Shown here piece after piece: positions 152-54,244 of a DNA stretch of 64,000 nt (positions within the stretch are counted from its first letter, which is position 1; each line of letters begins with the position of its first letter). A program made the translations under genes and the position numbers. The notes beneath the pieces were generated by a model. The model ran no database searches and was not told the origin of the DNA. It saw only the letters and a program-made list of their open reading frames with translations. Location: the NCBI GenBank assembly GCA_037443945.1, contig JBBINH010000001.1, positions 5,965-69,964 on the forward strand, in the 5' to 3' direction. Origin of the DNA: Caldilineales bacterium (GTDB lineage Bacteria > Chloroflexota > Anaerolineae > J102).

Positions 152-186
152 CCCCAGTCACACGTGATGTGGCTGGGGTTTTTGTT
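152..186 (+). terminator. intrinsic terminator-like hairpin in the leader of the 206-622 gene
   Basis: CCCCAGTCAC (152-161) pairs with GTGGCTGGGG (169-178), followed by TTTTTGTT. Confidence 0.65.
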
Positions 187-205
187 CCCCGTTCGTTTGG
201 CCGTT

Positions 206-622
206 ATGAGTACCCCTACCCTTACCCGCATTCGCATTGCGCCCAACGGCTATGGCCTCAGCCTGATGCGCACCTTCGAACGCCATAGCCCTTTTGCCGC
301 GCCGCTGGCCGCTGCTCTGGCGCGCGAGTGCGAGACGGGCAGTCGTGCCCTCTATCTGGGCCTGTTGGGCGAGCATGGCGAGCTGTTGGCGCGGGCCCGG
401 CTGGTGCTCGATTCCCTCAAGGTCATCCTCGTGGATGAGCTGGAAGCCATGCCGGGTTACGAGGCGCTCTTACCGGAACTGGTCGCCTTTGCCACGGCCG
501 AAGCCATGGCGCGCAACCGGCCGCTGGCTGTGATGGTGGCCGAGGATGATGTGTCGGACTGGGCGGCTCTGGGCTTCGGCGAGACGGGGATGCGCCTTCT
601 CATTCGGCTTCAGAGGACCTGA
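206..622 (+). CDS. hypothetical protein, possibly GNAT-like fold
   Basis: ORF 131..622; ATG 206 chosen because it lies after the terminator. Alternating beta/alpha pattern ending in WAALGF, resembling the GNAT Y/W-x-x-x-G-F motif. Fold is an inference. Confidence 0.5.
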   Translation: MSTPTLTRIRIAPNGYGLSLMRTFERHSPFAAPLAAALARECETGSRALYLGLLGEHGELLARARLVLDSLKVILVDELEAMPGYEALLPELVAFATAEAMARNRPLAVMVAEDDVSDWAALGFGETGMRLLIRLQRT

Positions 623-3174: not shown

Positions 3175-3278
3175 TGCTCTGTTCTGTTGCGATCGCAATG
3201 GGACAAGGGGGAGGCAAGGCGCCCTTGTTGGGCCGGCAAAGTGTCTCCCAGTGTACCACACTCTTGAGGAGTCTGACC

Positions 3279-4181
3279 ATGAAGCATGTTGTCAGCATCA
3301 GTCTAGGCAGCAGCACCCGCAACAAAAGCGTGGTCATCACTCTGGATGGCGAGCCGATTCGTATCGAACGCATCGGTACCGACGGCGATGAGGCCAAAGC
3401 GCGGCGGCTCTTCGCCGAACTCGACGGCAAGGTGGATGCTCTGGGGGTGGGCGGGGTGGAGCTGTATCTGCGTCTGGAAGGCCGCGAGTATCCGCTGCGG
3501 TCGGGGCTGAGCCTGGTCAAAGACGTTCGGCAAACGCCCTGTGTGGATGGGCGCGGGCTGAAACACACGTTGGAGCGCCGCGTTTTTGCCCTGGCCGAAC
3601 CGGCACTGGGCTTTCGGCCGCATTATCGCCAGGCGTTTATGACCCTGGGAGTTGACCGTTTCGGGATGGCCCAGGCCGTGGCCGAAGTCTCTGACCGGGT
3701 GGTCTACGGCGATCTCATGTTTGCCCTGGGACTGCCCATCCCCATTACCAGCCTGCGGCAATTGCGCTTCCTGGCGCAACTGTTGTTGCCCGTCATCGGC
3801 CTTTTGCCCGTGTCCATGCTGTATCCGACCGGCGCCAAACAGGAGCACATTGAGCCAAAATATCCCCGCTATTGGGCGGCAGCCGAGCTGATCGCCGGCG
3901 ATTTCCTGTACATCCGCAAACACCTGCCCGACGATCTGCATGGTAAGACGATCCTGACCAACACGACCACCGAGCATGATGTCGAACTGTTGCGACAACG
4001 AGGATTGCGCTGGCTGATCACGACTACGCCGCGCTATGAGGGGCGTTCCTTTGGCACGAACATGATGGAGGCCGCGCTGACGGCCTACGCCGGCAAAGGC
4101 CGGGTCCTCAGCGAGGCCGAGCTTAACGAACTGATCGACCGTCTGCAGCTGCGTCCCAGCGTCCAACGGCTCAACGAGTGA
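3279..4181 (+). CDS. conserved hypothetical protein (family often auto-annotated 'quinate 5-dehydrogenase')
   Basis: MKHVVSISLGSSTRN start with GAGGAG RBS; TTPRYEGRSFGTNMMEA motif typical of this family; function not established. Confidence 0.65.
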   Translation: MKHVVSISLGSSTRNKSVVITLDGEPIRIERIGTDGDEAKARRLFAELDGKVDALGVGGVELYLRLEGREYPLRSGLSLVKDVRQTPCVDGRGLKHTLERRVFALAEPALGFRPHYRQAFMTLGVDRFGMAQAVAEVSDRVVYGDLMFALGLPIPITSLRQLRFLAQLLLPVIGLLPVSMLYPTGAKQEHIEPKYPRYWAAAELIAGDFLYIRKHLPDDLHGKTILTNTTTEHDVELLRQRGLRWLITTTPRYEGRSFGTNMMEAALTAYAGKGRVLSEAELNELIDRLQLRPSVQRLNE

Positions 4182-5818
4182 TGATGCGCACGCGCCGGTT
4201 GGGCCTTCTTTTCGTCGGCTTGCTGCTTCTCGGCGTCAGTTGTACCTGGCCGCCGCCCCCACCGACGACGCCGGATACAGGGGCCGTTACCCCCGAGACG
4301 ATGGCGACGGCGGCGGTTGCCTCCGGCCTCTTCGCCACGACCTGGGACGACCGCACGGTTTTTGCCGCCGATCTGACCCCCGTCGCCCGGGACGTGCTGC
4401 AGAAACGGCCGGGAGCCACTGTGTACCATCTCGATCTGAGCCTATCCGACGATTTGACCCGGTTGACGGGACGGCAAGCGGTGCGTTATACGAACACCGA
4501 AGCAGCGGCGCTGGGCGAGGTGTATTTCCGCCTGTTCCCCAATCTCGCCGACGGCAAAACGACCGTTCACCTCGTCACCGTCGATGGGGTCCCCGTCCGG
4601 CCTCGTTATGCGTTGCAGGATAGCGCGCTGATCGTCCCTCTGGAGCAGCCGTTGTCGCCCGGCCAGGCCGTGGTGATCGGTCTCGATTTTGCCGTTACCG
4701 TGCCGACTCGACCCGGCGGCAACTACGGCACCTTTGCGCTGATGGATGAGGTCCTGGCCCTGGCCCATGCCTATCCCCTCATCCCGGTCTATGACGATGC
4801 GGGGTGGAATGTCGAAATTGCTCCCACCATCGGCGATGTGGTCTACGCCGATGTGAGCTATTACCTGGTGCGCCTCACTGCGCCTGCCGGTCTCGTCATC
4901 GCCACATCCGGGCGCGAGTTGGAGCGGATCGAACAGGGCGATCGCGTGGTCTACACCTTTGCCGCCGGCCCCGTCCGCGATTTTTACCTGGCGGCCAGTC
5001 CCCGTTATCAGCTCAGGAGCACGACGGTGGGCGAGACAACGGTCCGCAGTTGGGCACCGCCCAGGCTGAGCGAGGCCGCCGCCCACGTTTTGGACGCAAC
5101 CGCCAAGGCTCTGGCCCTTTACAACGAGCGCTTCGGTCCCTATCCCTTCACGGAATTGGATGTGGTTGCCACCCCTACCCTGGCCGGTGGCGTTGAATAT
5201 CCCGGCATCATCGCCGTGGCCCAGAGCCTTTACGATCCGAACAACAGCTTTTTGGAGACGGTTGCCGCTCACGAAGTGGCCCATCAGTGGTTTTACAGTC
5301 TCATCGGCAATGACCAGGTGGACGAGCCCTGGCTGGATGAGGCCCTCGCCCAATACGCCACATGGCTCTACTATCGAGACCGTTACGGGGAGGCCAAGGG
5401 CCGGTGGTTCGAGGAGAATCTGCATTTGCGCTGGCAACAGGCGAGCGACCTCGACATGCCCATCGGTTTGCCGGTAGCTGCCTACAACGAACGCGATTAC
5501 AGTGCCATTGTCTACGGTCGCGGGCCGCTGTTTGTGGAGGTCCTGGCCCAAACCCTGGGGGAAGCCTCCTTCACTGCCTTCCTGCAGGATTACTACCGCA
5601 CCTTTCGGTGGGATACGGTCACCACCGCCGACTTCAAACGGCTGCTGGAACGCCATTGCGGCTGCGATTTAGCGCCGTTGTTTGCCGAATGGGTCTATCC
5701 GCGGCCGGAACCGTTGTCGTCAAAGACGCCCATAGCCATGCTTCCTCTGCGGCTGGAGCGATGGACAAGCTTATCATTACGGCAGCCCTCACCGGTTCAC
5801 GGCCGACCAAGGCCATGA
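4178..5818 (+). CDS. M1-family metalloaminopeptidase, lipoprotein
   Basis: Lipobox LLGVSC, GGVEYP (GxMEN-like), HEVAHQW zinc motif with downstream WLDEALA glutamate. Confidence 0.88.
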
Positions 5819-6603
5819 ACCCAGCCGTGCCCTATACGCCCGCCGAGATCGCCGCCGAGGCCGTAGCCTGCGCGCAGGCCGGCGCCGCCGTCGTGCACGT
5901 CCATGTGCGCGATCCCATCACCGGCGCGCCCTCATCCGACCCGGAGCGGTTTGCCGAGGTGGTGGCGCGCATTCGGGCCGAGTGCGATGTGCTCATCAAC
6001 CTGACGACGAGCGGGCTGCACCTCGAAGGAGAGGATATCGTCAGCCGGCGTCTGGCGCCGATAGCGCTGCGGCCGGAGCTGTGTTCGCTCGATATCGGTT
6101 CGGTCAATTTCCGCGATCGGTTGTTTGCCAATCCACCCGACTGGGGCGAGACCGCCGCCCGGGCCATGCAGGCGGCCGGCGTCAAACCCGAAATCGAGGT
6201 CTTTGATGTCGGTCATATCCATCAGGCCCGGCATCTGATCGAACGCGGGCTGATCGACCCGCCGCCCTACTTCCAACTGTGCATGGGCGTCGACTGGGGC
6301 ATTCCGGCTACGGCCGAAAACCTGCTTTTCATGCAGCGTCAGTTGCCGCCGGGCGCCGTCTGGTCGGTACTGGGGGTTGGGCGGACCCAATTGCCCATGA
6401 TCACCCTGGGCATTCTCCTGGGCGGCCATATCCGCGTCGGTTTCGAGGATAACCTCTACCTGCGCAAGGGGGTCTTGGCCCCGAGTAACGCCGCTTTTGT
6501 GGAGATGGCCGTGAACCTGGCCCATCAACTGCAGCGGGAGGTGGCCACACCGGCCGAAGCCCGCGCCATTCTGGGGTTGAATCCCGTTGCCGCAACCGGG
6601 TAA
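5761..6603 (+). CDS. beta-keto acid cleavage enzyme (BKACE / DUF849, Kce-like)
   Basis: [12 protein letters not shown] start, HVHVR metal motif, [17 protein letters not shown]. Confidence 0.92.
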
Positions 6604-6606
6604 ACC

Positions 6607-7218
6607 ATGTCGTCTTCGGCGCCGCCGTTGTTCCTGCGTCGTCTGAGCGTAGCCCTGGCCATGTGGACGGGGGGCCTTGTGCTGCTGCACTACTTTTGGC
6701 CTATCGCTCCGGTGCGGGAAGCGGTACAACCCGTCCTGCGCACGGTGGTCTTGCTGAGCGCCATGGTGCTGGTGTTGGCCGCCGTGCGCCTGGTGAGGCA
6801 TCATGGGCGTCGATGGCGACAGCCGGAAAGTGCGGCTTTCCTGGTGGGAGCCGGTCTGTCTCTGGGGACAGGCCTGTTGCCGGGGGGATACGAGGCCGGA
6901 CCGGGGTGGTGGGTGTATGCCTGGCTGTTGCGGCCGGGCTGGGCTGCCCTCTTGGCCCTGGTGCCCGTGTTCTTGCTGGCGGCTCTATATCGGCGCCTGC
7001 GAATAGACGAGCCGGCGGCGTTGTTGTTCGTGACCGGTCTGGTGCTTATGCTGGCGGCACAAACACCGGCGGTGGTAGCGATCTGGCCGTGGCTGGCCGA
7101 GCTGCGTCATGCTTTGCTAAGCTGGCTGGTGGCCCCCGTCCTGCGTGGGATCCTCATCGGTCTCAGCCTGGGCGTGGTATGGCGCGTGCTAGCGTATCGG
7201 GGAGGGCGCTCCGGATGA
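6607..7218 (+). CDS. uncharacterised multi-pass membrane protein
   Basis: About 5-6 hydrophobic segments, C-terminal LRGILIGLSLG; ATGA overlap with the next gene. Confidence 0.7.
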   Translation: MSSSAPPLFLRRLSVALAMWTGGLVLLHYFWPIAPVREAVQPVLRTVVLLSAMVLVLAAVRLVRHHGRRWRQPESAAFLVGAGLSLGTGLLPGGYEAGPGWWVYAWLLRPGWAALLALVPVFLLAALYRRLRIDEPAALLFVTGLVLMLAAQTPAVVAIWPWLAELRHALLSWLVAPVLRGILIGLSLGVVWRVLAYRGGRSG

Positions 7219-8258
7219 ACCGTTGTCGCTACTGTGGGGCCGAAAATGCCGACGATGCCACCCTCTGTGCGCAGTGTGGCCGTGTTCTGAACGTGCCGCC
7301 TCCGCAGGTGTTGGCCCAGATTCAAGGCGTGTTGCCGGCCGAACCGGTGATCTGCACCGGACATCTGGCGCCTGAGGACCAAGCGCTCTGGCAAGAGCTG
7401 GTGACGACGGTGATGGCGGCGTCGCCGCCGTCACCCCCACCGGCCGCCGTCGGCCCCGCAACGACGGTCGGGCTCGGTCTGCTGATGCTGGGGGTTATCC
7501 TGATGACGGCCGTGCTCACGCCCCCGGGATGGCGCTCCGACCTGTCGAAGGCGCCTCCACGGCCGGGGGTCGTCGCCGCTTATCATCTCATCGCCGTCTT
7601 ACCGTCCACCGCCCGGGTGTTGTTGGCCTGGGATTACGACCCCACCACCCAGGGCGAGATGCAGCTTCTGGCCCAACCGCTGCTGCGGCATTTGCTCGGC
7701 CGGCGGGTTGCCCTGGTCAATGTCAGCCTGCGGCCTTTGGGACCGGCCATGGCAAGGGCCGCCTTTGCCGACCTGGCAATGCCCGTTCCTCTGCTCCAGG
7801 CCCCGGTTGACCTGGGCTTTCTGCCCGGTGAGAGCGCGGCCTTGCAGGCTCTGGCCCTGGCGCCGGCTGGTGTAGTGCCTCTGTCGGGCGCCGCGCGCGA
7901 CCGTTTGGCCCTAGCCGGGGATGAACCCCTCACCGCCTTCGATCTGATCATCGTGTTCGGTGCCGAGACGACGGCCGGCCGGCAATGGATTGAGCAGATC
8001 GCCGCCCGCCAGCCGGTGCCGCTGATCGTGGTCGCTTCGGGTGCCGTGGCGCCGGTCCTTGAACCCTATGCACAGACCGGTCAGATCCTCGCCCTTCTGG
8101 CGGGCTATCCTGATGCCCTGGCCTATGAGGCGTTGTTGGGCATACCGGGAACGGCAACCGCCCGTCAGACGGCCCAAAGCGCCGTTCATGTGCTTGCGTT
8201 GGTCGTTATCCTGGTGGCCGCTCTCGTCCGTTCCCTTCGCCGCCCCCCGTCGTCATGA
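7215..8258 (+). CDS. uncharacterised membrane-anchored protein with N-terminal zinc ribbon
   Basis: CRYC...CAQC zinc ribbon, a TM helix, soluble domain with LLAWDYDPTTQGEM, C-terminal TM. True start at ATG 7215 within ORF 6663..8258. Confidence 0.7.
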   Translation: MNRCRYCGAENADDATLCAQCGRVLNVPPPQVLAQIQGVLPAEPVICTGHLAPEDQALWQELVTTVMAASPPSPPPAAVGPATTVGLGLLMLGVILMTAVLTPPGWRSDLSKAPPRPGVVAAYHLIAVLPSTARVLLAWDYDPTTQGEMQLLAQPLLRHLLGRRVALVNVSLRPLGPAMARAAFADLAMPVPLLQAPVDLGFLPGESAALQALALAPAGVVPLSGAARDRLALAGDEPLTAFDLIIVFGAETTAGRQWIEQIAARQPVPLIVVASGAVAPVLEPYAQTGQILALLAGYPDALAYEALLGIPGTATARQTAQSAVHVLALVVILVAALVRSLRRPPSS

Positions 8259-8938
8259 ACACCTTCGCCGATCTGTTGGGGCTGATCCTGGCTACCGTCT
8301 TGACCTTGCTCATCTTCGCCCGCCTGTGGGGAGCTGTGCGGGTCTTTTATCCGGTAGCCTATCTGCTCCTGGGCCTGTTGGCCGGCTATGTGGCGGTCGT
8401 GAGCCTGCGCCGGGTGCTGATACCGGGCTTGCTGCTGCCTCTGCAGCAGGCGCAGGCATGGCCGACGTTGTTGTTACCGCTGGGCTTGCTCGTTTTGCTG
8501 CTTTTGCGGATGAGTAGGCAACCGCGCCTGTACCACCTCGGTCTGCCGGCCGTAGGCTGGTTGGCCGGAGCGATGGCCGGATTGGCTTTGGCCGGGGCCG
8601 TGCGCGGGACGCTGCTTCCGCAGATGCTGGCCGTCATCGTCCTGACTCCGACCGAGGGGAGACACCCCGGCCTTGACCCGGTGCTAACGTTGCTGAGCGC
8701 GTTTCTGACTTTGGCCGTGTTGACCCAGGCCTGGCACCGCCAGGAGACGAACCCAACGCTACGGACCTGGCTGACCGTGCCGGCTCGCATCGGGAAGCTG
8801 GCCTTGATGGCCGCAGCCGGGGTGTTTCTGGGCAGTCTGCTTACTGCGCGTCTGGCCCTGCCCATCGACCGGGTGTATGAGCTGGTGGAAGCTTGGAGCC
8901 GCATGATAGGGGGAGGTAATTTTTTTATCTCTTTCTAA
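8255..8938 (+). CDS. uncharacterised multi-pass membrane protein
   Basis: About 6 hydrophobic segments; ATGA coupling to the upstream gene. Confidence 0.7.
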   Translation: MNTFADLLGLILATVLTLLIFARLWGAVRVFYPVAYLLLGLLAGYVAVVSLRRVLIPGLLLPLQQAQAWPTLLLPLGLLVLLLLRMSRQPRLYHLGLPAVGWLAGAMAGLALAGAVRGTLLPQMLAVIVLTPTEGRHPGLDPVLTLLSAFLTLAVLTQAWHRQETNPTLRTWLTVPARIGKLALMAAAGVFLGSLLTARLALPIDRVYELVEAWSRMIGGGNFFISF

Positions 8939-8940
8939 AC

Positions 8941-8982
8941 TGTGACCCAGATCATAGGTGTGGCTGAGAGAGAGATTATAAT
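8941..8982 (+). promoter_or_regulatory. CRP/FNR-family box plus -10 element (class II activated promoter) of the multiheme operon
   Basis: TGTGA-CCCAGA-TCATA at 8941-8956 (9/10 match to TGTGA-N6-TCACA); TATAAT at 8977-8982; no consensus -35. Confidence 0.65.
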
Positions 8983-9015
8983 GCGGAGTATCTGCACCGT
9001 TGCTCCTTTGCCGCC

Positions 9016-10752
9016 ATGTTCTCCGCGCGTGGTTTGTCCAAATGGCTGGGATTGCTGGCCGTCATCGGCTTTGCTGTCCTGAGCGTGGGATGTCGCCCAT
9101 CGCCTACGCCCACGCCTACCCCTACGCCGACGCCGTTCATTCCGCCCACACCGCCGCCAACGGCGGCCGATGTGGGGTTGGGACCGGCGCCAGTGACGAG
9201 TTTGGCCGTGGTTCATCAGCCTTTCGGCGATGGGGCCTGTGGGGCCTGTCATGATCTGCGAGGCTCCGACCCCAGGCAGATGTGGGGCGCAATCCAGGAG
9301 GTGTGCCGCCAGTGCCATTGGCAGGATGTGCCCGATCCGGATAGGCCCCTTGCCCATCCGCATGCGCCTTTTGCCCGCGGGGAGTGTCTAACCTGTCATC
9401 TGCCTCATGCCGGTGCCCATCCCAAGCTGCTGGTGGCACCGGTGACGCAGCTCTGTAACGATTGCCATCAAGACCACGGCGGCATCGTGCAGCAGCCCCA
9501 TCCGCAAGTAGCCCAGGGCGAGTGTAATCTCTGTCATCTTGCGCATGGTTCAATGCAGCCGGCCCTGTTGCGCCAACCGCAGAAAGTCCTGTGCGGCGTA
9601 TGCCATCCCGATCCGATCGATCCCCAGCGTAGTTTTGCTGCCCATGCCGAGGCTCCGGAGCTGACGTGTACGAGCTGTCATGCGCCTCATGATCCGGCGG
9701 CGCAACCGGCGCAAGTGACCCGCGCCATCTGTGTGACCTGCCATGCCGATCTGCCTGTGCCGGCGGATTTCCGCTTTCCTCACAAGCCTTTTGCCGAGGA
9801 GCGCTGCGCCGATTGCCATCCGTCGTTTCATCGGGATCCCGATAGACCGCTTCTGGCGGCTACACAGTCCCAATCGTGCAATGCCTGCCATGGCGATCAC
9901 GGCCTGGTGGTGACCCAGACCCATCCGCAGGTGGCCAAAGGCGAATGCCGTCTGTGCCACGATGGTCATGGCAGCAACCACCCCAACCAACTGGTCAGGC
10001 CCGAAATCGATATCTGTCAAAGCTGTCACGGTGAGGTATTCGCTGCGACCGCTTTTGCCGGCCATGCCGTCGCTCAATTGCCGGCCTGTACGAGCTGTCA
10101 TTCGCCCCACGTACCCCAAACGGCCGGTCCGGCCGTGGCCATGGCCTGCGCAACCTGCCATCAGGATATTCTGGCCGGCCGCAGTCAGCACAAGCCCGTG
10201 AGCCAGGGGGAGTGCAAGGCCTGTCACAGCGAGTTTCACGGTCAACAGCCGACACAACTGGCTGCGGTTCAGACGGTCTGCACCGATTGTCATCAGCTCG
10301 AAAAGGGCTCTATTGCGCATCCGCCCTATCAACAGGGCCGCTGTGAGACGTGTCATGTCGTGCACACCAGTCCGCATACGGCCCTGCTCAATCGCGCACC
10401 TACCCAATTGTGCGGCACCTGTCATGTCTCACAAACGGCCGCTTTCGGACGCAGCCGGCATGCCGCTCACCTGACCGCCCAATGCGCGGCCTGCCATCAG
10501 GCTCACGATGGCTCGATCGACAACCTGCTCCATGCCCGCACGAATGCGCTCTGTGATACCTGCCATCGCGATCTGCCGCACGGCTTCCATCCGGTCAGCG
10601 GGGGGCGCGATCCGGTGCGCGGAGGCGAATTGAGCTGTATCAGTTGCCATGCGCCTCATGGCAGCCCGCATCGGGCCGACCTGCGTGCGCCCGGTGACGG
10701 GCTTTGTCTGAGCTGCCATCGTTTCGAGCAGCCTCCTACAGCGCGAAGATAA
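9016..10752 (+). CDS. 22-heme c-type cytochrome lipoprotein (paired-CxxCH, DmsE/MtrA-like repeats)
   Basis: Lipobox LSVGC, PT-rich linker, 22 CxxCH motifs counted, many in doubled CxxCH..H..L..CxxCH units. Confidence 0.93.
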   Translation: MFSARGLSKWLGLLAVIGFAVLSVGCRPSPTPTPTPTPTPFIPPTPPPTAADVGLGPAPVTSLAVVHQPFGDGACGACHDLRGSDPRQMWGAIQEVCRQCHWQDVPDPDRPLAHPHAPFARGECLTCHLPHAGAHPKLLVAPVTQLCNDCHQDHGGIVQQPHPQVAQGECNLCHLAHGSMQPALLRQPQKVLCGVCHPDPIDPQRSFAAHAEAPELTCTSCHAPHDPAAQPAQVTRAICVTCHADLPVPADFRFPHKPFAEERCADCHPSFHRDPDRPLLAATQSQSCNACHGDHGLVVTQTHPQVAKGECRLCHDGHGSNHPNQLVRPEIDICQSCHGEVFAATAFAGHAVAQLPACTSCHSPHVPQTAGPAVAMACATCHQDILAGRSQHKPVSQGECKACHSEFHGQQPTQLAAVQTVCTDCHQLEKGSIAHPPYQQGRCETCHVVHTSPHTALLNRAPTQLCGTCHVSQTAAFGRSRHAAHLTAQCAACHQAHDGSIDNLLHARTNALCDTCHRDLPHGFHPVSGGRDPVRGGELSCISCHAPHGSPHRADLRAPGDGLCLSCHRFEQPPTARR

Positions 10753-10756
10753 GCCG

Positions 10757-13700
10757 ATGAAGCGTCTGTTCCTGCTCTGGATGACATGGGGCCTCCTCCT
10801 GGTGGCCCTGGCAGGGGGTAACCGTTTGGCGCCTATCGTCGCCGAACAAGGTGCGCCGTTCAATCCGCATGGTCGTTACAGCGCGGCAACGAACAGTTGC
10901 ACGGTTTGTCATGTACCGCATAGCCGTACAACCGATCCCGAGGCGGCCTGCCGCAGTTGCCATCCCCGGATCGTCACCCACAGGGAGCAGACCTGCGCCA
11001 CCTGCCATGCTCCCCACGGCAATACGCCCAATGCCGCCCTTATCCAGGCGGTGGTTCGCGGCAAACCCATGCGCTTTGACGGCAAAAACTTCGATGCCGC
11101 TGCCGATTCCATCTGCCGTACCTGTCACACCACCACGGCCTATCACAGCGCCACGGCCCGGAGCAGCCATTACGAGCAACAGCCTTGCACGAATTGCCAT
11201 CCCCACAGCGCCGGCTTTAGTCCCAATCCGGAGAACTGCGGGGCCTGCCACGGTTTTCCGCCTGCCAGTGGCGCCCATAATCGCCATCGCCAGGCCGATA
11301 TCGGTCTGACCGATTGCCAGGCCTGCCATCCGCAGGTGCGGAACTGGCGCGATCCAGGCCATTACAACGGGCGTGTTGATTTCAAGGACCGGGCCGTGCT
11401 GGCCACGACAGGCGTCTGTAATGCCTGTCATGGCAATGCCGCCGGCATCGCCGAAGCCAAGGCCAACTGGAGCCGTGGTCGCCCTCTGCAGGATTGTACC
11501 GGTTGCCACAACAGCACCCAACCAGGACGGCTGCGGGATCGGGTGGCGCCGGCCGTGGATGCGTTTTGGACGGTCAACGGCCATGGGCAGGGCCACGAGC
11601 AAGGCCGCGATCTGGATTGCCAGGCCTGTCACAATCCGCAGGCGCCTCATTTCGACACGGCCGGCAACCCCCGGTTGTGGGATACCCCGGCTGCCTTGTG
11701 CGCCCGTTGCCATCAGGACCCCGCTCGCGCCGGCGCCGATGTGAGCGCTCACGGCAACCAGGGCTACGCTCAGGCCACCCAACGGCCCTTCGGCGAGACC
11801 TGCGATGCGTGTCATAACCCCCATGGCAGCGCCAATCTGGCGGCCGTGCGCGCTGCTATCCGCGGCAAGACGGTGGTTTTCATCGCCCGCACCGGCGCCA
11901 ACAGCTTCGATTCCCCCAACGACGAGAACAGCCGCGATCTCTGCGCCACCTGTCATACCACGACCCGCCACAATCGTACACCCAGCAATCGCAGTCAGAC
12001 GCCCCATTACGAGGGGCAGGATTGTGGGCAGTGTCACAAGCATGAAACAGATGGCGATCCGCGCACGGCCGATGCCTTCATGCCCCAGGGCGGTTGTATG
12101 GCCTGCCATAGCGACCGGGTGGATAACGGCGATAACATTCCACCCGGTGGCCGCCCGGAGGTCGCCACGGACTTTGCCGGCCGCAGTCATCACATCAAGG
12201 GTGACCTGCTCGACGCCCGCTGTGTGGTCTGTCACGATATGGCCACCCACGGCGACGGCTATATTGACCTACGCCATCCCGACGGCGGGCCTGCTTTCCG
12301 TTTCCTCGAGGCCTCGGCTACCGATCTGACGGCTTTCTGCCAGGCTTGCCACGACGGCGACGGCAGCCGCGTGGCCAGGGTGCCCGGCGCGCAACCGGCC
12401 GATCCGTTCAACGAGGGCAGCGATCTGCTGGCCTTGCCGCCTACAAACACCCACAGCAATCGGGATGATGCCGGCCGCCAGGGCGAGGCGTTTAGCACGA
12501 CCTGCAACGAATGCCATGCCGGACACGGCAGCAGCAATCTGGCCCTGGTCCGCACGGCCATCCGTGGGCAGACGATTGTCTTCACCGCCCGCACCGGTGC
12601 GAATAGCTTCGACGACCCGGATAAGGATGACCGCAACGACCTTTGCGCCACCTGCCACATCGGGCGGACCCGTCTGCATCCGGGTGGCGACCATCGGCCG
12701 GCCGGCGACCTGGACCTGCGCGGGACCGATTGCACCACCTGTCACCGCCACGATGCCGATAACAGCCTTGCCACTCGCGATGGGTTTATGCCCTCGTGTG
12801 GGGCCTGCCATGGCAACCCGCCGCCGCCCGCCGGCAGTCCGCTCTACACTCTCAACGAGAACCTAACTCCGCACCGAAAGCATGCCGGCACCGGGCCGGG
12901 TGAATACGGTTTGGCCTGCAGTACCTGCCATAACCGGTTGGTGCCGTCCTACACTGGCCACGTGACCCGGCCGCCCAGCTTCCAGGATGTCTTCTTCGAT
13001 GCTCTGAATCCCATCGGCAGCTACGATCGCCAGACCCGCACCTGTGCTACCCTGGGTTGCCACAGCAATGGCAATCCCACCGGCGGCCAACTCATCTACC
13101 GCAATCCGGTATGGGCCGAAAACAGCCGTTTGGATTGCGCCGGCTGTCACGGCGATCAGGCCACGTTGGCGACCGGCAGCCACGCCGGGCATCTGTTGCC
13201 TTTCTATCGCGATCGTGGGGCCGATGCTATCGGTTGTTTCGAATGCCATGCCCTGACCGCCCAGAACAACGATAACAACGCCCTGGCCGATTTGCGCAAG
13301 CATGTCAACTTGACCAAGGATGTCCAGTTCGATGTGCGCGACTTGTGGGGGCGATCGGATAACGCCGTCTTCGATCCGAATACCCTCACCTGCGCCAATA
13401 GCCTGTGCCATTCGGATGGTGCGGCCAGCCGCGAACAACCCGATGTTCCCGTCTTCAGCACGCCCAAGTGGGGCGATCGGGCCAGCGGGACCTGTGGCAC
13501 CTGTCATAGTATCACGCCGCAGACGATGACCAGCGGCGCCCACGCGCGTCACTTCGATACCTCCAACCAGGGGCCGGGTATCACCTCGTGTAGCGATTGC
13601 CATAGTCCCTACGGCAGCACCCAACACGTCAACGGCAAAGTTGAATTCGCCGACGGCAAAACCCTGGCGCAGACCACGGTGTGCGATGCCTGCCATAGCC

Positions 13701-14506
13701 CCGGTGGCGGTTTCGACGGCGTAGCCGAAGCGCGCGCGAACTGGGCTACAAGCCGTCCGGTCCGGTGCGAAGGCTGCCATGATGCCCAACCCGCTGTGGT
13801 CCGGGGTGTGACCGCCCCCAACGTGGCCGGCGACGGCCGTACGTACGGCTTTGCCCTCGGCGGACATGGGCGTCTCGGCTTTACCTGCGCCACCTGCCAT
13901 GAGAAGGGGCCCAACAGCATTCACTTCGACGGCGTGGCCCGGACCTATACGGCGGCCGCCGACAACCTGGAAGCCGCCAAATGGCTGGGATTGGGTGGCT
14001 TGAAAGTGCCTATTACCGCCGAGGATCCCTACGTTCGGACCCACTACGCCCAGTGCTACGTCTGCCATCTCGAGGCGAACACGGTAGGTTTGGGACCGGG
14101 CTACAGCAATGCGCTGTTCACGCATAGCGTGCCCCCACCGCCGGGCTATCCTCTAATCGTGGATACGGTTGTCACCCGCTTCCGCAACGAACGGCCCGAA
14201 GGCTTCAACTTCGGCAACGTTCCGGCCAACATCCACTGGGACCACCTAGATATGAACATGGTGAACTGGGATAGCGATGGCGATGGCACGATGGACTCCA
14301 AGCCCTCGTGTGTGACCTGTCATGACCCGCACGGGGTCAAATCCTTCGCCGATGGTGTCACCTATCCGGCCATGACGATCGCCGACATGGGTATCGTCCA
14401 CGGCCAGGATGCTATCGGCGCCTACGGCGAGGTAACACAAACGGCCTACAACAACCGCTGTCGCACCTGTCATCCCGCTGCCGGTATCCGCTATTATCGA
14501 CCGTGA
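10757..14506 (+). CDS. giant secreted multiheme cytochrome c (32 CxxCH + 2 CxxxxCH)
   Basis: Sec-type signal peptide; motifs hand-counted; CATLGCH...CAGCH and CANSLCH...CGTCH resemble the Geobacter CxxxxCH...CxxCH domain. Confidence 0.93.
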   Translation: MKRLFLLWMTWGLLLVALAGGNRLAPIVAEQGAPFNPHGRYSAATNSCTVCHVPHSRTTDPEAACRSCHPRIVTHREQTCATCHAPHGNTPNAALIQAVVRGKPMRFDGKNFDAAADSICRTCHTTTAYHSATARSSHYEQQPCTNCHPHSAGFSPNPENCGACHGFPPASGAHNRHRQADIGLTDCQACHPQVRNWRDPGHYNGRVDFKDRAVLATTGVCNACHGNAAGIAEAKANWSRGRPLQDCTGCHNSTQPGRLRDRVAPAVDAFWTVNGHGQGHEQGRDLDCQACHNPQAPHFDTAGNPRLWDTPAALCARCHQDPARAGADVSAHGNQGYAQATQRPFGETCDACHNPHGSANLAAVRAAIRGKTVVFIARTGANSFDSPNDENSRDLCATCHTTTRHNRTPSNRSQTPHYEGQDCGQCHKHETDGDPRTADAFMPQGGCMACHSDRVDNGDNIPPGGRPEVATDFAGRSHHIKGDLLDARCVVCHDMATHGDGYIDLRHPDGGPAFRFLEASATDLTAFCQACHDGDGSRVARVPGAQPADPFNEGSDLLALPPTNTHSNRDDAGRQGEAFSTTCNECHAGHGSSNLALVRTAIRGQTIVFTARTGANSFDDPDKDDRNDLCATCHIGRTRLHPGGDHRPAGDLDLRGTDCTTCHRHDADNSLATRDGFMPSCGACHGNPPPPAGSPLYTLNENLTPHRKHAGTGPGEYGLACSTCHNRLVPSYTGHVTRPPSFQDVFFDALNPIGSYDRQTRTCATLGCHSNGNPTGGQLIYRNPVWAENSRLDCAGCHGDQATLATGSHAGHLLPFYRDRGADAIGCFECHALTAQNNDNNALADLRKHVNLTKDVQFDVRDLWGRSDNAVFDPNTLTCANSLCHSDGAASREQPDVPVFSTPKWGDRASGTCGTCHSITPQTMTSGAHARHFDTSNQGPGITSCSDCHSPYGSTQHVNGKVEFADGKTLAQTTVCDACHSPGGGFDGVAEARANWATSRPVRCEGCHDAQPAVVRGVTAPNVAGDGRTYGFALGGHGRLGFTCATCHEKGPNSIHFDGVARTYTAAADNLEAAKWLGLGGLKVPITAEDPYVRTHYAQCYVCHLEANTVGLGPGYSNALFTHSVPPPPGYPLIVDTVVTRFRNERPEGFNFGNVPANIHWDHLDMNMVNWDSDGDGTMDSKPSCVTCHDPHGVKSFADGVTYPAMTIADMGIVHGQDAIGAYGEVTQTAYNNRCRTCHPAAGIRYYRP

Positions 14507-15636
14507 CCGATCGGGCTTCGTTTCGCATGCGTTGGTATCATCTGTTTTGGATACTGTGGCCGGTGGTCCTGTTGGGGTCGGCGGCCATGGCCCATGCGCA
14601 GGCCGATCCCAATGCTGCCTGTCTGGTCTGTCATAGCGTGCCCGGCCGTGAAGCCCTGCTCGCCAGTGGTGAACATCTGCCGCTCTACGTGAACGGCGAT
14701 GTCTACCGCCTGTCGGTGCACGGGCAAATGCAATTGCCCTGTACGGCCTGTCATACCCGCATTACGGGCTTTCCCCACGATCCGTTGCTCGCTTTCGACC
14801 GCCGCGATTATCAGCTCGACCATTACGGGGTCTGCCGGAATTGTCATCCCGAGGTCTACGAAGCCACCCTGGATTCGATGCACGCGCGGGCCCTGGCTGC
14901 CGGCCGTCGCGAAGCGGCGATTTGTACCGATTGCCACGGTGCTCATGACATCACCTCGCCCCACAGCCCGCGTCAGAAGATTTCGCTGACCTGCAGTAAG
15001 TGCCATGCCTTTATCTTCGAGCAATACAAGGAGAGCGTTCACGGCGCCGCCTTGCTCGAGGAAAGCAACCCGGATGTCCCTACCTGTGTCGATTGCCACG
15101 GCGTTCATAACATCGAGGACCCGACTACGGCGGCTTTTCGGTTGCGCTCGCCCGAAATCTGCGGGGAATGTCACCGCAACGAGGCCCTGATGAGCCAATA
15201 CGGCATCTCGACGGCGGTGTTCAATACCTATGTTGCCGATTTCCATGGGACTACCGTCACGCTGTTCCAACGTCAACACCCCGATCAGCCGACGAACAAG
15301 GCGGTTTGCTTCGATTGCCACGGCATCCATAACATCAAAGCCGTAGATGATCCGGAAGCCACGGTGGTCAAGGAGAATCTGCTGGAGACTTGTCGTAAAT
15401 GCCATCCCGATGCCGATATTAACTTTCCGGCCTCGTGGACCAGCCATTATATCCCCGACCGCAACCGCTACCCTTTGGTGTACTATGTCAATCTGTTCTA
15501 CCGGATCATCATTCCCGGTACCATCGGCTTTATGCTCGGCTTTGTTGTGTTGGATGCTTTTCGGCGTGTGTTGATGCGGACGCGTCGACAACGGGTCGTC
15601 AAACAGGCTTCCGTAGAGGCCGATCATCATGAGTGA
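14503..15636 (+). CDS. nonaheme cytochrome c with C-terminal TM anchor (CbcL/CbcA-like c domain)
   Basis: Signal peptide, 9 CxxCH, C-terminal hydrophobic helix. GTG 14503 overlaps the upstream stop; ATG 14527 is an alternative start. Confidence 0.88.
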   Translation: MTDRASFRMRWYHLFWILWPVVLLGSAAMAHAQADPNAACLVCHSVPGREALLASGEHLPLYVNGDVYRLSVHGQMQLPCTACHTRITGFPHDPLLAFDRRDYQLDHYGVCRNCHPEVYEATLDSMHARALAAGRREAAICTDCHGAHDITSPHSPRQKISLTCSKCHAFIFEQYKESVHGAALLEESNPDVPTCVDCHGVHNIEDPTTAAFRLRSPEICGECHRNEALMSQYGISTAVFNTYVADFHGTTVTLFQRQHPDQPTNKAVCFDCHGIHNIKAVDDPEATVVKENLLETCRKCHPDADINFPASWTSHYIPDRNRYPLVYYVNLFYRIIIPGTIGFMLGFVVLDAFRRVLMRTRRQRVVKQASVEADHHE

Positions 15637-16984: not shown

Positions 16985-18577
16985 ATGATTCGCCGTTTTC
17001 GCCTCTGGTTTCGCCAACACTGGCAAAAGGCCCTGGGAATCGCTTTTGCCCTCACCGTCCTCGGTTTGGTTGTTTTTGTCATCGGGGTGACAGCTTGGGA
17101 GTACACGAACAGCCCTGAGTTTTGCGGTGCCACCTGTCACACCATGCCCCCGGAGTACATCGCCTATCAGCAATCGCCCCACGCCCGTGTGGCCTGTGTG
17201 GACTGTCATCTGGGGCAGGAGTCGGTGCTCTATGCTATCCCGCGTAAGGCCAGGGAGGTACGTCACGTCGTTTTTGCGCTCACCCAGGATTACGAAATCC
17301 CGATCTATGTCAAAAGCATGCGGCCGGCTCGCGACACGTGCGAGAAATGTCACGACCCGGAGAAATCCTCGCTGGACAGCGTGCGTACCATTACCCGCTA
17401 CGCTACCGATGCGACCAACACCCCGACCGTCATTCATCTGATCCTCAAAACCGGTGGCGGATCGAAACGCGAAGGCCTGGGGCGCGGCATCCACTGGCAT
17501 ACGGTCAATCAGGTTTACTTCCTGACCACCGATCCGCTCAAACAGAACATCCCCTATGTCAAAGAAGTTCGGGATGACGGTTCGGTGGTTGAGTATTTCG
17601 ATCTGGAAAGCGGCATTACACCGGCCGAGGTGGCAGCCCGCAGCAGCGAATTGCACTTGATGGATTGTATCGATTGTCACAATCGGGTTTCCCATCGCTT
17701 CGCCAAGCCCGATATCGCCGTGGACGAGGCCATCACCCGTCGTCTCATCGATGGCTCCCTTCCGCAAATCAAGCAGAAGGCGGTAGAGTTGCTCTCACAA
17801 CCGTCCGGGACGCGTGCCGAGTCGTTGGCCCAGATCGAGGCCCTGGCGGCCTGGTATGAGCAAAACTACCCCGAGGTATATGCGACCCGCCGCGAGGCCA
17901 TCGACCAAGCCATCGCCAGCCTGAAACGCATTTTCGAGTCCATTTACTTCCCCGATATGGCCGTAGGCTGGAGCACGCACCCTGACAACCTGGGCCATCT
18001 CAACTTCCCCGGCTGTTTCCGCTGCCATGACGGCAAACATACCAGTCCCGATGGGCAGACGATTCGGCTGGAGTGCAACATTTGCCATACCATTCCGCGT
18101 GTGACCGGGCCGGGCTTACCGTCCCCTGTGATCAACCTGGTGCCGGCCAACGAACCCGAATCGCACAAAGACAGCAACTGGCTGGCGCGGCATCGCTATG
18201 AGTTCGATGCCACCTGCGCCGGTTGCCATAGCACCTTTAATCGCGGCGGCAGCGATAACAGTTCCTTCTGCGCCAACAGTGCCTGTCACGGCATCCGCTG
18301 GCAATTTGCCGGGTTGGATGCACCGGGTCTGCGGGCCATTTTGCCCCCGCCTGCAACCTCAGAAGACGAAACGGCACCGACGGAGGAAGAGCAACCCGGT
18401 TTTGTACCCCTGATTCCGCATCCCCTTGGTGAGGAACGCATCGGCCAGTGCCGTACCTGCCACGGCCTGCGCGGCCTGAGGCCTTATCCCGAGTATCATG
18501 AGGAGTTTCCCCTTCAGGCCTGCACCGAATGCCACAAGCTGGCACCGATGCTACGAGGACAAACCTCGTTGCGATGA
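16985..18577 (+). CDS. NapC/NirT-family multiheme quinol dehydrogenase (ImcH-like), 10 heme motifs
   Basis: N-terminal TM, YTNSPEFCGATCH, CVDCH, CEKCH, LKTGGG..GIHWH; 8 CxxCH plus CxxxCH and CxxxxCH. Confidence 0.88.
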   Translation: MIRRFRLWFRQHWQKALGIAFALTVLGLVVFVIGVTAWEYTNSPEFCGATCHTMPPEYIAYQQSPHARVACVDCHLGQESVLYAIPRKAREVRHVVFALTQDYEIPIYVKSMRPARDTCEKCHDPEKSSLDSVRTITRYATDATNTPTVIHLILKTGGGSKREGLGRGIHWHTVNQVYFLTTDPLKQNIPYVKEVRDDGSVVEYFDLESGITPAEVAARSSELHLMDCIDCHNRVSHRFAKPDIAVDEAITRRLIDGSLPQIKQKAVELLSQPSGTRAESLAQIEALAAWYEQNYPEVYATRREAIDQAIASLKRIFESIYFPDMAVGWSTHPDNLGHLNFPGCFRCHDGKHTSPDGQTIRLECNICHTIPRVTGPGLPSPVINLVPANEPESHKDSNWLARHRYEFDATCAGCHSTFNRGGSDNSSFCANSACHGIRWQFAGLDAPGLRAILPPPATSEDETAPTEEEQPGFVPLIPHPLGEERIGQCRTCHGLRGLRPYPEYHEEFPLQACTECHKLAPMLRGQTSLR

Positions 18578-18740
18578 AGGCTGCTTTTGCAGTCGGCCGG
18601 AACAGGACAGGCCCATACCGGGCCGGGGCAACAGGGTAAGAGAACATTGGTGCCTTCGGGCCGGGCCGCGGCGAAGCGCGCCTCTGATCCTGCGGTGACT
18701 TTTGCATTTGGAAACCGGCTTGCAGTAAGCCGGCGGGGTA

Positions 18741-18758
18741 TCGTGCTAAACTTCACAA
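18741..18758 (+). promoter_or_regulatory. possible Rex (NADH/NAD+ sensor) operator
   Basis: TCGTGCT-AAAC-TTCACAA versus TTGTGAA-N4-TTCACAA (11/14); overlaps an extended -10-like TGCTAAACT. Confidence 0.35.
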
Positions 18759-18826
18759 ACAGATGGCTTGTATATACGTTGCCAAAGGATACTAAGATGA
18801 GCTCTTGATACCGACCCGGTAAAGCT

Positions 18827-18856
18827 TTGACACATTGTTCGTACACCATGTATAAT
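18827..18856 (+). promoter_or_regulatory. consensus sigma70 promoter of the Rieske/cytochrome b operon
   Basis: TTGACA (18827-18832), 18-bp spacer, TATAAT (18851-18856). Confidence 0.8.
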
Positions 18857-19020
18857 TCGCTCCTGAGTCTCGGTCGATTATGGCCGAGCACGCTCGAGAT
18901 AGATTGCAATCGATGGTCCGGTCTGTAGCGGACGTGAGACAAAAAGGCTAAAGCTTTTGCCTGTCTCACGCCCTTTTGTTTTATTCTACTTTCATCCTCT
19001 GTGGTCAAGGCGTGTAACTT

Positions 19021-19857
19021 ATGGCTGATACCGAGACGAAACCCCCTGTGACAACCGGAAAAGAAGCGTTCGTGGCATCCGCCGAGGGCCGCGTGGCCGA
19101 GCGTCGGCGCGGCGGCGATACCACCGGAGTCTCCGCCGATCGTTCGGATGGTGAAGAAGGCGGCATCAGCGAAGCAGCAAAACGTTTCCAGGCCCTGAAG
19201 CAAGGTCAGGCTTTGAAGCAAAGCCGCAAAGAGCGCGAGGCTGCCCTGTTGCGCCGGGCCGTTGATATCGCTCCACGCGTGAGTGCCGAGAGTTTACCCG
19301 AAGCCCAACCGCAAAAGGCGCCTTCGCTACCTATCAACCGCCGCGAATTCCTGACCTATGCCTGGGGCGGTGCCCTGGCCCTGGTTTTAGCGCAGGGCGG
19401 ACTGGCCACCCTGTGGTTTGCCTATCCGCGCTTTAAGGCGGGTGAATTCGGCGGTGTCTTTACCCTCACGAGTATCCCGGAGCGGGGCGCTAAACCTGTC
19501 GAGAATTTGCAGGGTAAGTTCTGGTGGACGAATGCCGAAGAAGGCGGGATAATAGCGCTGTATAAGGTCTGCACCCATCTGGGTTGTCTGTACGAGTGGA
19601 AAGACCAGACCCGTCGTTTTGAATGTCCTTGTCATGGTTCCAAGTTTAATCAATCCGGTCGCGTCATTCATGGACCGGCGGCTCGTGACTTGGATCAATT
19701 TGTCGTTACCGTCCTGGATAGCAACGGTAACCAGGTCGATCAAACCACACCCGATCACCGTTATGTTCTTGCCGGTGAAGGACTGACTTACAAGATCGAC
19801 ACCGGTCGTAAGATTCAGGGTCGGCCTGCTGACCCTGCTCTGGCTGTGGAGGCATGA
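19021..19857 (+). CDS. petC: Rieske [2Fe-2S] subunit of a Rieske/cytochrome b complex
   Basis: Tat-like NRREFL plus TM, CTHLGC and CPCHGS boxes, GPAARDL. Confidence 0.93.
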   Translation: MADTETKPPVTTGKEAFVASAEGRVAERRRGGDTTGVSADRSDGEEGGISEAAKRFQALKQGQALKQSRKEREAALLRRAVDIAPRVSAESLPEAQPQKAPSLPINRREFLTYAWGGALALVLAQGGLATLWFAYPRFKAGEFGGVFTLTSIPERGAKPVENLQGKFWWTNAEEGGIIALYKVCTHLGCLYEWKDQTRRFECPCHGSKFNQSGRVIHGPAARDLDQFVVTVLDSNGNQVDQTTPDHRYVLAGEGLTYKIDTGRKIQGRPADPALAVEA

Positions 19858-19860
19858 GTT

Positions 19861-21471
19861 ATGGTTGGTCAAGATATTCGCAGCCGTGGACTACGCGGTT
19901 ATCTCGGCGCCAAGGCCGACAGCGTCTTCGAACGCATCACGGCCGGCATTCCCTGGCGCGATTTCCGGAAGATGCTGCGCGGGGATCCCCCCGATCGTCC
20001 GAATCCACGCCTGAAACCCCATTCCGAGTCGTTTTGGCTGCATATCAAGCCCACCTACTATCACGAATCGGTCACGCACTTCACCCATACCTTTCGGTTG
20101 GGATTGCTGAGCACCTATCTGTTCGTGGTGGAGCTGATTACCGGTCTCATTTTGATGATCTGGTACGCGCCCACGCCTGAGCGGGCTTATGCGGATATGA
20201 TACGTTTGCTATCCAATGTGCCGTTTGGGCAATTGATGCGCGATATTCATCGTCTGGGCGCAGAGGCCATGGTGATCGTCGTGGTTCTGCATATGTTTCG
20301 GACCTTCTTAACCGGTTCGTACAAAAAACCGCGACAGTTCACCTGGGTGACCGGGGTGGTGCTGCTCATCGCCACGCTTTTCCTGAGCTTTTCCGGCTAT
20401 CTTCTGCCCTGGGACCAGCTGGCCTTCTGGGCCGTGACCATCGGTACGAGCATGGCCGAGGCCTCGCCGACACCGCCGGGCGCCGGCTGGATCGGCACCA
20501 TGCTGTTCGGTACTTCCGACTGGGTGGGTCAATTCGTCAACCTGTTGTTGCGTGGGGCACCCGACATCGGTGCCGGCGGGTTGCTGCGCTTCTATCTGCT
20601 CCATATCTTCTTCTTGCCGCTGGTTGTTATCTTCTTCTTCTTCTTCCACTACTACAAGGTGGTCCATTTCGGCATTTCCTTGCCGGCGAAGGAGGAAGAA
20701 GTCGGTCAGGATACGGCCAACCGGGTGCCGGCCGATAAACGGCGCTATTACCTGATGGACATCGCCATTGACGAGATAGCCCTGCTTTCGGTGGTCACTT
20801 TCGTTCTGGTAGCGATGTCTGCCTTTTTCTATGATGCCAAGTTGGAACACATTGCCAATCCCCTGAAGACACCACTGCATACGACGGCACCCTGGTATTT
20901 CTACTGGCTCCAGGGTTTGCTCAAGATCGGCAACAAAGTGTTTTGGGGCTTGATTGTGCCCGGGATCATGATTTTCCTCACCTTTGCGCTACCGTATCTC
21001 GATTACAATCCCAGTCGTCGCGGGAAGGACCGTCGTTATGCTCTGGTAGCCGGCTTTCTCTTCGCCTCTTGGATCGTGGTCCTCTCCTTCATGGGCCTGC
21101 CCCTCTATGCCGTGCAATCCCCGCCGGCCGAAGAGGTGGTTCAAGAGTTCATGCCCGAAGAAGGGGTCGGCCCCATCCGTGAGATCCCCTGGTCTGAGCT
21201 GGAAATCGGCGTGTATGACACACGGACCTTTGAAGGGAGTGTGCCCTACTCCGAGTTCGAGCAGGTTATCCTGGACTTCAAGGAGCGCATTGCCCGAGAC
21301 CCCGGTTTGCCCAACGGCAGCGGTATTATCACCGTTGAAGCGGCCGGTCCGGGTTTGAAACGAATCAAGTTCCAGATCGATTACACCGATATCGACGGGA
21401 AGCCGGCTCAGTTTATCAAGACCTTCTATCTGCACGAGAGTTCGCTCTATTGGGAGCAATTCACCTTCTGA
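19861..21471 (+). CDS. petB: cytochrome b subunit (b6 plus subunit IV fused) of a Rieske/cytochrome b complex
   Basis: Heme-b histidines in RDIHR, VLHMFR, LLHIFF, FFHYY; [14 protein letters not shown]; Qo motif APWY. Confidence 0.93.
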
Positions 21472-26066: not shown

Positions 26067-26255
26067 GGGGCTCAGACAAGGAAATGAACCGAACTTTCAA
26101 TTTCAGTATAGCACATCTTCGGCGAAGATTTTCGCCGAGATGCCGGTAAACAATGGCAAACAAATGGGCCGGTCTTCGACCTCATCCCGGAGGTGTCTGC
26201 ATCGCTTTAGATAGGACAAGCGCGGGAAGGCACAAAGCTGGCGCCCACCCTAGTT

Positions 26256-26349
26256 GACTCGGTTCCGGAGTGTGTCGGCGCAAGAGCGGCAGGCAGGCAT
26301 AACGTTCAAACGTTCTAACGTTCTCACCAACAAAAGATAGAACCGAGGC
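26256..26349 (-). mobile_element. MITE-like element, copy B (94 bp)
   Basis: Ends GACTCGGTTC / GAACCGAGGC, flanked by direct repeat CCCTAGTT (26248-26255, 26350-26357); 89/94 nt identical to 54136-54237 in reverse orientation. Confidence 0.85.
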
Positions 26350-26424
26350 CCCTAGTTGGTGTTCTCGTGCCTGTACGGTAAGATGAGAGCGACCCTTGTT
26401 TGTTCCTTTGCCCGGCATCGGACC

Positions 26425-54237: not shown

Positions 54238-54244
54238 CAACGAT

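Follow-up and report, generated by a model that had tools for sequence, protein, structure and literature searches.

MITEs derived from DDE transposons are known from several bacteria, among them the Correia elements of Neisseria, Nezha of cyanobacteria and RUP of Streptococcus pneumoniae. The repeat described here resembles these bacterial MITEs in being about 100 bp long and non-coding, with terminal inverted repeats (TIRs), a target duplication of fixed length and a high copy number, as well as in its intergenic location, its potential to form a hairpin and its ends, which it has in common with an autonomous insertion sequence (IS). It differs from MITEs of the Correia/Nezha/RUP type in its apparent parent, which is Mutator/IS256-like and not of the IS630, IS5 or IS1 type, in the 8-bp length of its duplication, in a variable internal array of 8-bp AACGTT units and in its host, a Caldilineales-like member of the Chloroflexota. 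Being short and non-coding, with TIRs, a fixed duplication, dispersed copies, empty sites and ends shared with an IS, it has features by which a MITE is recognised, and no earlier description of it was found in the literature searched.

The Mutator-like transposases of prokaryotes, to which the parent of this MITE appears to be related, possess a D, D, E triad in which a long helical insert separates the second aspartate (D2) from the glutamate, the D2–E spacing being 99–138, and a C/D(2)H motif located 11–19 aa after D2 (PMC3942029). Their relations to the target are diverse. Insertion of IS256 is essentially random, ISH6 has the target consensus AANATNTT, and TnGBS with its related IS (p-MULT 3) and the ISKra4-like elements (part of p-MULT 4) insert 15–17 bp upstream of the sigma-A -35 box (PMC3942029).

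The host is called Caldilineales-like because relatives of the window proteins, exact or at least 90% identical, bear the names Caldilineales bacterium or Anaerolineae bacterium. The window, that is, the whole stretch of 64 kb that was analysed (G+C about 63%), contains two copies of the element, designated A and B, with the following features.

26256–26349, minus strand: MITE copy A, 94 bp, with three GAACGTTN units (from the sequence)
26256–26280: IRL-like end of copy A
26325–26349: IRR-like end of copy A, its terminal pattern mutated to GCCTCGG
26248–26255, no strand: left duplication of copy A, CCCTAGTT (exact repeat)
26350–26357, no strand: right duplication of copy A, CCCTAGTT (exact repeat)
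26300–26323, minus strand: internal array of copy A, three units of GAACGTTN, each with the palindrome AACGTT
54136–54237, plus strand: MITE copy B, 102 bp, with four GAACGTTN units (from the sequence)
54136–54160: IRR-like end of copy B
54213–54237: IRL-like end of copy B
54128–54135, no strand: left duplication of copy B, CAACGATT (exact repeat)
54238–54245, no strand: right duplication of copy B, CAACGATT (exact repeat)
54162–54192, plus strand: internal tandem array of copy B, 3.9 units of GAACGTTT/A (TRF)

Copies A and B agree at 89 of 94 aligned nt, with five mismatches, and copy B has one 8-bp GAACGTTN unit more than copy A. An earlier note on this DNA had reported both copies, their match, the different perfect 8-bp direct repeats that flank each of them and the difference of one internal GAACGTT(T/A) unit; all of this was reproduced, the repeats being exact and the units numbering three in A and 3.9 in B by TRF. 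For a 20-mer of the element, 0.01 occurrences in the window are expected and two were observed, and no copy beyond A and B was found within the 64 kb. The termini read GACTCGGT(T/C)C, one end of copy A being mutated to GCCTCGGTTC, and the inverted-repeat ends of the family, taken as a pair, are GACTCGGTTCC...GGAACCGAGTC. The imperfect terminal inverted repeats of the earlier note are present; the extent given for them was too short, since they cover about 25 nt and are bipartite, with a terminal GACTCGGTYC and an internal TGTTGG(T/C)G about 18 nt in. In copy B, 16 of the 25 inverted-repeat positions are complementary, and folding of this copy gives a stable hairpin (z = -4.6). Sequence scans reported no promoter-like or terminator-like sites inside copy A or B, and by eye no outward-facing promoter was seen within the element. 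As for the AACGTT array, its interpretation as a LexA box was rejected because GAAC-N4-GTTC is absent.

Two related NCBI MAG contigs, 99.5–99.7% identical to the window, contain a third copy (C), situated 5.6 kb beyond the left edge of the window (L026, positions 1056–1141, equivalent to L027, positions 276–361). With its two array units this copy measures 86 bp, and it is bounded by a perfect 8-bp duplication, GTGCGTTT. The target duplications are thus perfect, 8 bp long and mutually different in three of three copies (CCCTAGTT, CAACGATT and GTGCGTTT), and the known copies, of 86, 94 and 102 bp, are too short to encode a transposase.

Copy number was estimated from the word depth of Logan contigs in X1–X4, four runs of one subsurface-metagenome study that contain the window DNA; the contigs were aligned to each copy and its flanks, and values for the element were taken over its best-conserved 14 nt. 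Depth increases from 24 in the flanks to 4389 in the element in X1, from 66.5 (flank range 66.5–71) to 12344 in X2, and from 8 to 1382 in X3, giving element/flank ratios of 183, 186 and 170, respectively. The rise starts and stops exactly at the inverted-repeat ends, and many contigs with differing flanks start or stop at 26256, 26347–26349, 54136 and 54237. Because the ratio remains steady while the depth of the host varies 9-fold across runs, nearly all copies reside in one population, at roughly 170–190 per genome, a figure that rests on summed assembler word depth in metagenomes rather than on a closed genome. A total of about 180 in a genome of a few Mb agrees with the two copies seen in 64 kb. 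At the position that separates A from B, G and C are each found in about half of the copies. Further copies had been predicted, and the depths of 170–186 times the flanks in three runs, together with a third copy that has its own 8-bp duplication, bear this out.

The fourth run presents a different picture. In X4, the depth at the element ends (about 5) equals that of the flanks; a higher value, about 55, is reached in the array core alone and comes from contigs that belong to a diverged subfamily, so that the slightly diverged relative in this run holds about one copy-equivalent of the window subfamily and about ten of the diverged one. Since the end depth there is the flank depth, the expansion to about 180 copies appears to be specific to the lineage of the window. 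Variation at the ends was observed as well: at the place corresponding to 54233 and 26345, a subfamily of copies in X1–X3 ends in ...GGAACCG-TCTC and not in ...GGAACCGAGTC, X4 has a further subfamily (…CTCGCACCAACACACTTTGGAAC), and the loose-end consensus of several contigs is mixed, with an agreement of 0.57–0.67. Regarding the array, one X1 contig that corresponds to 54162–54192 carries two partial GAACGTT arrays with 40 unrelated nt between them, and other X1 contigs match the element up to the array and then diverge; the AACGTT array may occur outside the MITE as well.

Related strains possess empty sites for both copies, each with a single 8-mer. Copy A is precisely absent in X4, where a 2.6-kb contig skips 26248–26349, a length of 102 nt that equals the 94 of the element plus the 8 of one duplication. 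This contig comes from a slightly diverged strain, with five differences in 248 nt, and its joint fits either side over 9 nt. Copy A is present in X1–X3 and in MAG locus L029. Copy B, in turn, is precisely absent in X2, X3 and X4, where 110 nt (102 + 8) are skipped, and of the four runs X1 alone has a strain type in which it is present. In X2 and X3 it is the dominant strain that lacks copy B; that of X2, which is near-identical, is represented by a 42.3-kb contig with a depth of 66.5; its empty allele (L021), read directly, runs ...GACAATGCG-CAGCGATT-TGACAATGG..., with one 8-mer and no element. The empty allele of X4 has a single CAACGATT, and its joint fits over 8 nt. Given this distribution, copy B is the younger insertion of the two, and since insertions are polymorphic among near-identical strains, the amplification is recent or continuing. 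The earlier note had set against its own reading the case in which relatives always carry the element and no further copies exist; both empty sites and more copies were found.

It had also suggested looking for a transposase-bearing IS with the same termini and 8-bp duplications, and such an IS was found in soil metagenomes. A scan of the JGI metagenomes with the terminal 19-mer pattern led to contigs from soil and rhizosphere, with about 70% G+C, that carry the IS; the same scan gave no host copies. In the GTDB representative genomes, among which the host genome is not included, the terminal 19-mer gave mostly chance matches and one related MITE (L002). Complete copies of the soil IS are 1513–1542 bp long (L014, L015, L023, L024 and L025) and have a single 430-aa ORF, whose sequence begins MNIVERGRAFLQ... 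and which starts about 105 nt inside the IS end. The soil IS loci begin with GACTCGGTTCCGGAGTGTGTTGGTG, identical at 23 of 23 nt to the IRL end of the MITE, and their far end, GACTCGGTTC(C/T)ATCTCCTGTTGGTGAGAAAC, matches the MITE end GACTCGGT(C/T)CT(C/A)TCTTTTGTTGGTGAGAAC, with about 26 of 30 positions in agreement at IRR. This end-for-end correspondence means that the MITE retains both ends of the soil IS family. Its core of about 45 nt, comprising the AACGTT array and GCCTGCCTGCC, has no soil-IS counterpart, with the exception of the first GAGAACG, which resembles GAGAAACG of the IS. A perfect 8-bp duplication, GAAAACTC, surrounds the L024 copy, which is inserted in an IS4-like transposase gene; no target duplication was seen in the other four of the five full-length copies.

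Two of these loci deserve separate mention. In L024 (1950–4432 and 1–909), the IS is nested in the IS4-like (DDE_Tnp_1) gene, and 2 kb upstream there is another transposase gene of the Mutator type, so that this is an IS-rich region of a soil bacterium. L002 (604–744, the same as L009), in the Anaerolineae MAG contig JAGHDT010000172.1, is a MITE of 139 bp that shares both ends with the present one but has an unrelated core, and no target duplication is clearly recognisable around it; given the shared ends and the other core, the IS family has yielded MITEs more than once in Anaerolineae.

The transposase of the soil IS combines an N-terminal four-cysteine zinc ribbon with a predicted DDE domain of the Mutator/IS256 type. 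It matches PF00872 (Mutator family) at 26.2 bits, with a cut-off of 21, over residues 204–265 only; PF00872 is precomputed for most of its homologues. The NCBIfam models for IS256 and ISH6 are matched by 14 of 14 tested homologues, always far below the cut-offs, with 32–34 bits against 150 for IS256 and about 30 bits against 240 for ISH6, the latter being the second-best model in all 14; several of these homologues also match IS256-type and IS1/IS1595-type N-terminal zinc-binding domains. In an alignment of homologues from this family, the candidate triad residues D172 and D234 do not vary and E356 hardly does. Their spacings are 62 and 122 aa, the second of which falls inside the published range of 99–138, and the motif C255-x2-H258 is placed 21 aa after D2, where the published distance is 11–19. 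The family comprises at least 1351 relatives, nearly all on metagenome contigs of about 1.5–2 kb. A tblastn search with the transposase against the 72,556 plasmids of PLSDB gave no match, and its profile matched no PDB sequence, hence no solved relative. One member, P0032 (L023), has Ala at the putative catalytic Glu, E356, and its element is without target duplication; this may be an inactive copy.

Among the families that the earlier note had offered as candidates (IS256, ISL3 and IS4-like), the IS256 or Mutator-type group fits, as indicated by the PF00872 and IS256 model matches. Like members of the IS256 family (p-MULT 1; Guerillot et al. 2014, PMC3942029), the soil IS is about 1.5 kb long, with a single ORF, imperfect inverted repeats and an 8-bp duplication, and it falls with that group in size and duplication (1.2–1.5 kb, single ORF, 8–9 bp). 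Its transposase resembles those of IS256 in the PF00872 match and apparently also in the C-x2-H after D2 and the D2–E insert of 122 aa. In contrast to IS256, it reaches about 33 bits where NCBIfam sets 150, and its N terminus is a four-cysteine zinc ribbon. With scores so far under the cut-offs, the transposase of the parent IS is, as judged from these profiles, an outlier of the IS256/Mutator-like superfamily and not IS256 proper. The ISH6 family (p-MULT 2) is similar in its 8-bp duplication and in its size of about 1.45 kb (PMC3942029), although the ISH6 consensus AANATNTT is absent from CCCTAGTT, CAACGATT, GTGCGTTT and GAAAACTC.

Partners for the MITE were sought in the host material. In agreement with the earlier note, which had seen no transposase in the window, the 64 kb contain no homologue of the soil-IS transposase. 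In X1–X4, no sequence of at least 80% nucleotide identity to the soil IS (L014) was present, only short spurious matches, and no contig joined a MITE end (terminal 50 nt) to a non-MITE interior; alignments of this kind evidently do not pick up a match as short as 23 nt. Because the searches of X1–X4 were carried out at the DNA level and would miss a partner diverged in DNA, mobilisation of the MITE in trans by a transposase of this family is inferred.

Taken at a probability of about 0.88, the reading that we favour is that the repeat is a MITE derived from an IS256/Mutator-like IS of about 1.5 kb, amplified in a Caldilineales-like bacterium and moved in trans with 8-bp duplication of the target. 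The MITE would be an 86–102-bp non-coding derivative that kept only the two ends of the IS. The terminal GACTCGGTYC would act as the cleavage end and the TGTTGG(T/C)G located about 18 nt in as the putative binding site of the transposase, roles assigned here from their position. A family transposase acting in trans would bind these ends and make an 8-bp staggered cut, the target being duplicated in the process, while slippage in the GAACGTTN array would generate variants with two, three and four units. The characterised insertions would lie immediately before the -35 box of promoters that already existed.

Other explanations have to be weighed against this one. A different transposase encoded by the host might move the element, the similarity of its ends to the soil IS being ancestral only; this would agree with the fact that a homologue of the soil transposase was detected neither in the window nor in X1–X4, and that the MITE core, with its AACGTT array and GCCTGCCTGCC, is foreign to the soil IS. 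However, the matches are end-specific, with 23 of 23 nt at IRL and about 26 of 30 at IRR, and the IS and the MITE both make duplications of 8 bp. Since a transposase acts on the ends of its own element, movement by an unrelated enzyme is unlikely, and we regard this explanation as improbable. A further possibility concerns the REP/BIME sequences moved by RAYT, palindromes of 20–40 bp that depend on a Y1 transposase and produce no target duplication. A host-selected extragenic repeat of this kind, or a cluster of AACGTT protein-binding sites, could have been spread by recombination or by a RAYT-type enzyme and not by a DDE transposase. Every copy seen is intergenic and beside a promoter, the hairpin is stable (z = -4.6 for B) and the array is built of AACGTT palindromes, all of which would suit such a repeat. 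It is nevertheless highly improbable, given that three of three copies have differing perfect 8-bp duplications and the empty alleles a single 8-mer, which REP/RAYT do not give, and that the ends, unlike those of REP/BIME, are homologous to a DDE insertion sequence.

Assembly artefacts, either repeat-induced chimeras or collapsed contigs, would have to account for both the copies and the empty sites, and the chance that they do is almost negligible. Many Logan contigs, and the MAG contig L030, break inside the element, as would be expected of such artefacts, but assemblies that are independent of one another (the window, L029, L026 and L027) contain filled alleles, the empty allele of B lies in a 42-kb contig with a depth of 66.5 and occurs again in two further runs, and an 8-bp repeat is too short for a false join at k = 31.

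Under the favoured reading of a MITE moved by an IS256/Mutator-like transposase, the earlier description of a recently active, non-autonomous element, dependent on an IS that makes 8-bp duplications, holds well: the repeat with its duplications and copy number, the empty sites, the homologous IS ends and the 8-bp duplication made by the IS are observed, and movement in trans would follow from them. The case would represent natural MITE amplification in progress, with about 180 copies in the lineage of the window and insertions that differ between near-identical strains of one study. The element also explains why short-read assemblies of the host fragment into pieces of about 30 kb, and it is linked to a large, almost metagenome-only transposase family at the edge of the IS256/ISH6 group. 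Copy number, polymorphism among near-identical strains and candidate promoter targeting are the aspects that may make it notable.

The last of these aspects arises from the genomic context. Copy A is located in a divergent intergenic region of about 360 nt, between a small minus-strand ORF ending at 25767 and a biotin carboxylase gene with its ATG at 26425, and copy B lies between priA (end at 53725) and a cobalamin riboswitch. The features next to the two copies are as follows.

26356–26384, plus strand: weak promoter-like motif TTGGTG-17-TAAGAT, ending 41 nt before the biotin carboxylase ATG (looser scan only)
54245–54273, plus strand: sigma-70-like promoter TTGACA-17-TACATT, 10/12 matches, with TG before the -10 (standard scan)
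54289–54429, plus strand: cobalamin riboswitch aptamer (RF00174, 48.5 bits against a cut-off of 31.5)
54473–54498: terminator-like hairpin of the riboswitch (sequence scan)

The promoter at copy B, which is the predicted promoter of the cobalamin riboswitch operon, begins with the final base of the duplication. The empty allele L021 carries it unchanged, and it is therefore older than the insertion. At copy A, the standard promoter scan found none, and the motif listed above came from a looser scan (TTG, 16–18 nt, nAnnnT, at least 7/12 matches). The earlier statement that both copies lie in promoter regions is accordingly clear for B, with its 10/12 site, and weak for A. With the looser scan, a TTGnnn-17-TAnnnT motif was found on one side of three of three complete copies, starting at base 7–8 of the duplication, and the junctions compare as follows.

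Copy A junction: TTGGTG-17-TAAGAT, starting at duplication base 7 (looser scan)
Copy B junction: TTGACA-17-TACATT, starting at duplication base 8 (looser scan)
Copy C junction: TTGTGT-17-TAACAT, starting at duplication base 8 (looser scan)
Further host junction, single contig: TTGACA-18-TATACT, starting at duplication base 5
Soil IS junction L016: TTGCGT-17-TATCTT, starting at duplication base 8

The -35 hexamer thus begins 5–8 nt from the inverted-repeat end in the three complete copies and the two single junctions, and most soil IS junctions lack a promoter-like motif. In the window, the looser motif has a frequency of 5.8e-4 per position, or 1.8e-3 where G+C is at most 55%, and the chance of finding it in three of three copies at offsets 7–8 is about 1e-8 to 4e-7, a value estimated after the pattern was seen. 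From this pattern it may be proposed, tentatively and with more doubt than confidence, that the MITE and the zinc-ribbon Mutator-like family target DNA just upstream of sigma-70-type promoters, with the cut abutting the -35 box.

Adjacency to promoters separates the MITE copies from IS256, with its random insertion, and brings them closer to TnGBS and the ISKra4-like elements, with which they would share a Mutator-like DDE transposase, a near-fixed short distance upstream of the -35 and insertion in either orientation where the inverted repeats are similar. The 15–17-bp spacing of those elements is not found in the MITE; here the -35 starts 5–8 nt from the inverted-repeat end and overlaps the duplication, a spacing about 9 bp shorter, and the soil-IS transposase matches the IS256 and ISH6 models instead. 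If the adjacency were genome-wide, promoter-targeted transposition of the Mutator-like kind would have a second class of spacing, and expression would be affected directly, the cobalamin-riboswitch transport operon beside copy B being an example. About 180 recent insertions would in that case have placed one and the same sequence of about 100 bp next to the -35 box in a large fraction of the host's promoters.

Several further observations concern the window and its relatives. Within window positions 1–14159, a total of 44 substitutions and a single indel of 22 nt in 14 kb distinguish the MAG GCA_037441015.1 (L026) from the window, and 47 substitutions distinguish the MAG GCA_034433475.1 from it, from which it follows that at least three closely related genomes of the species have been assembled. 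The operon behind the riboswitch (54550–61035) encodes a prenyltransferase/squalene-cyclase-like protein, two SCO2322/DUF4430-like proteins, CbiQ, a double ABC ATPase and an ECF component, and is probably a corrinoid uptake system. The second SCO2322-like protein includes a Thr/Pro-rich low-complexity repeat at 56650–57270, with units of the ACGCC/CCCAC type, and a related stretch is located at 9093–9167. Finally, repeated units coding for CxxCH (TGY...TGCCAY) occur at 9380–10660 and 14916–15337 and in L026 at 17501–20903, the latter in an ORF of 1249 aa. These CxxCH-rich ORFs would encode multihaem cytochromes of very large size, whose haem motifs are MtrC/MtrF-like and of the Geobacter type, and this suggests extracellular electron transfer.
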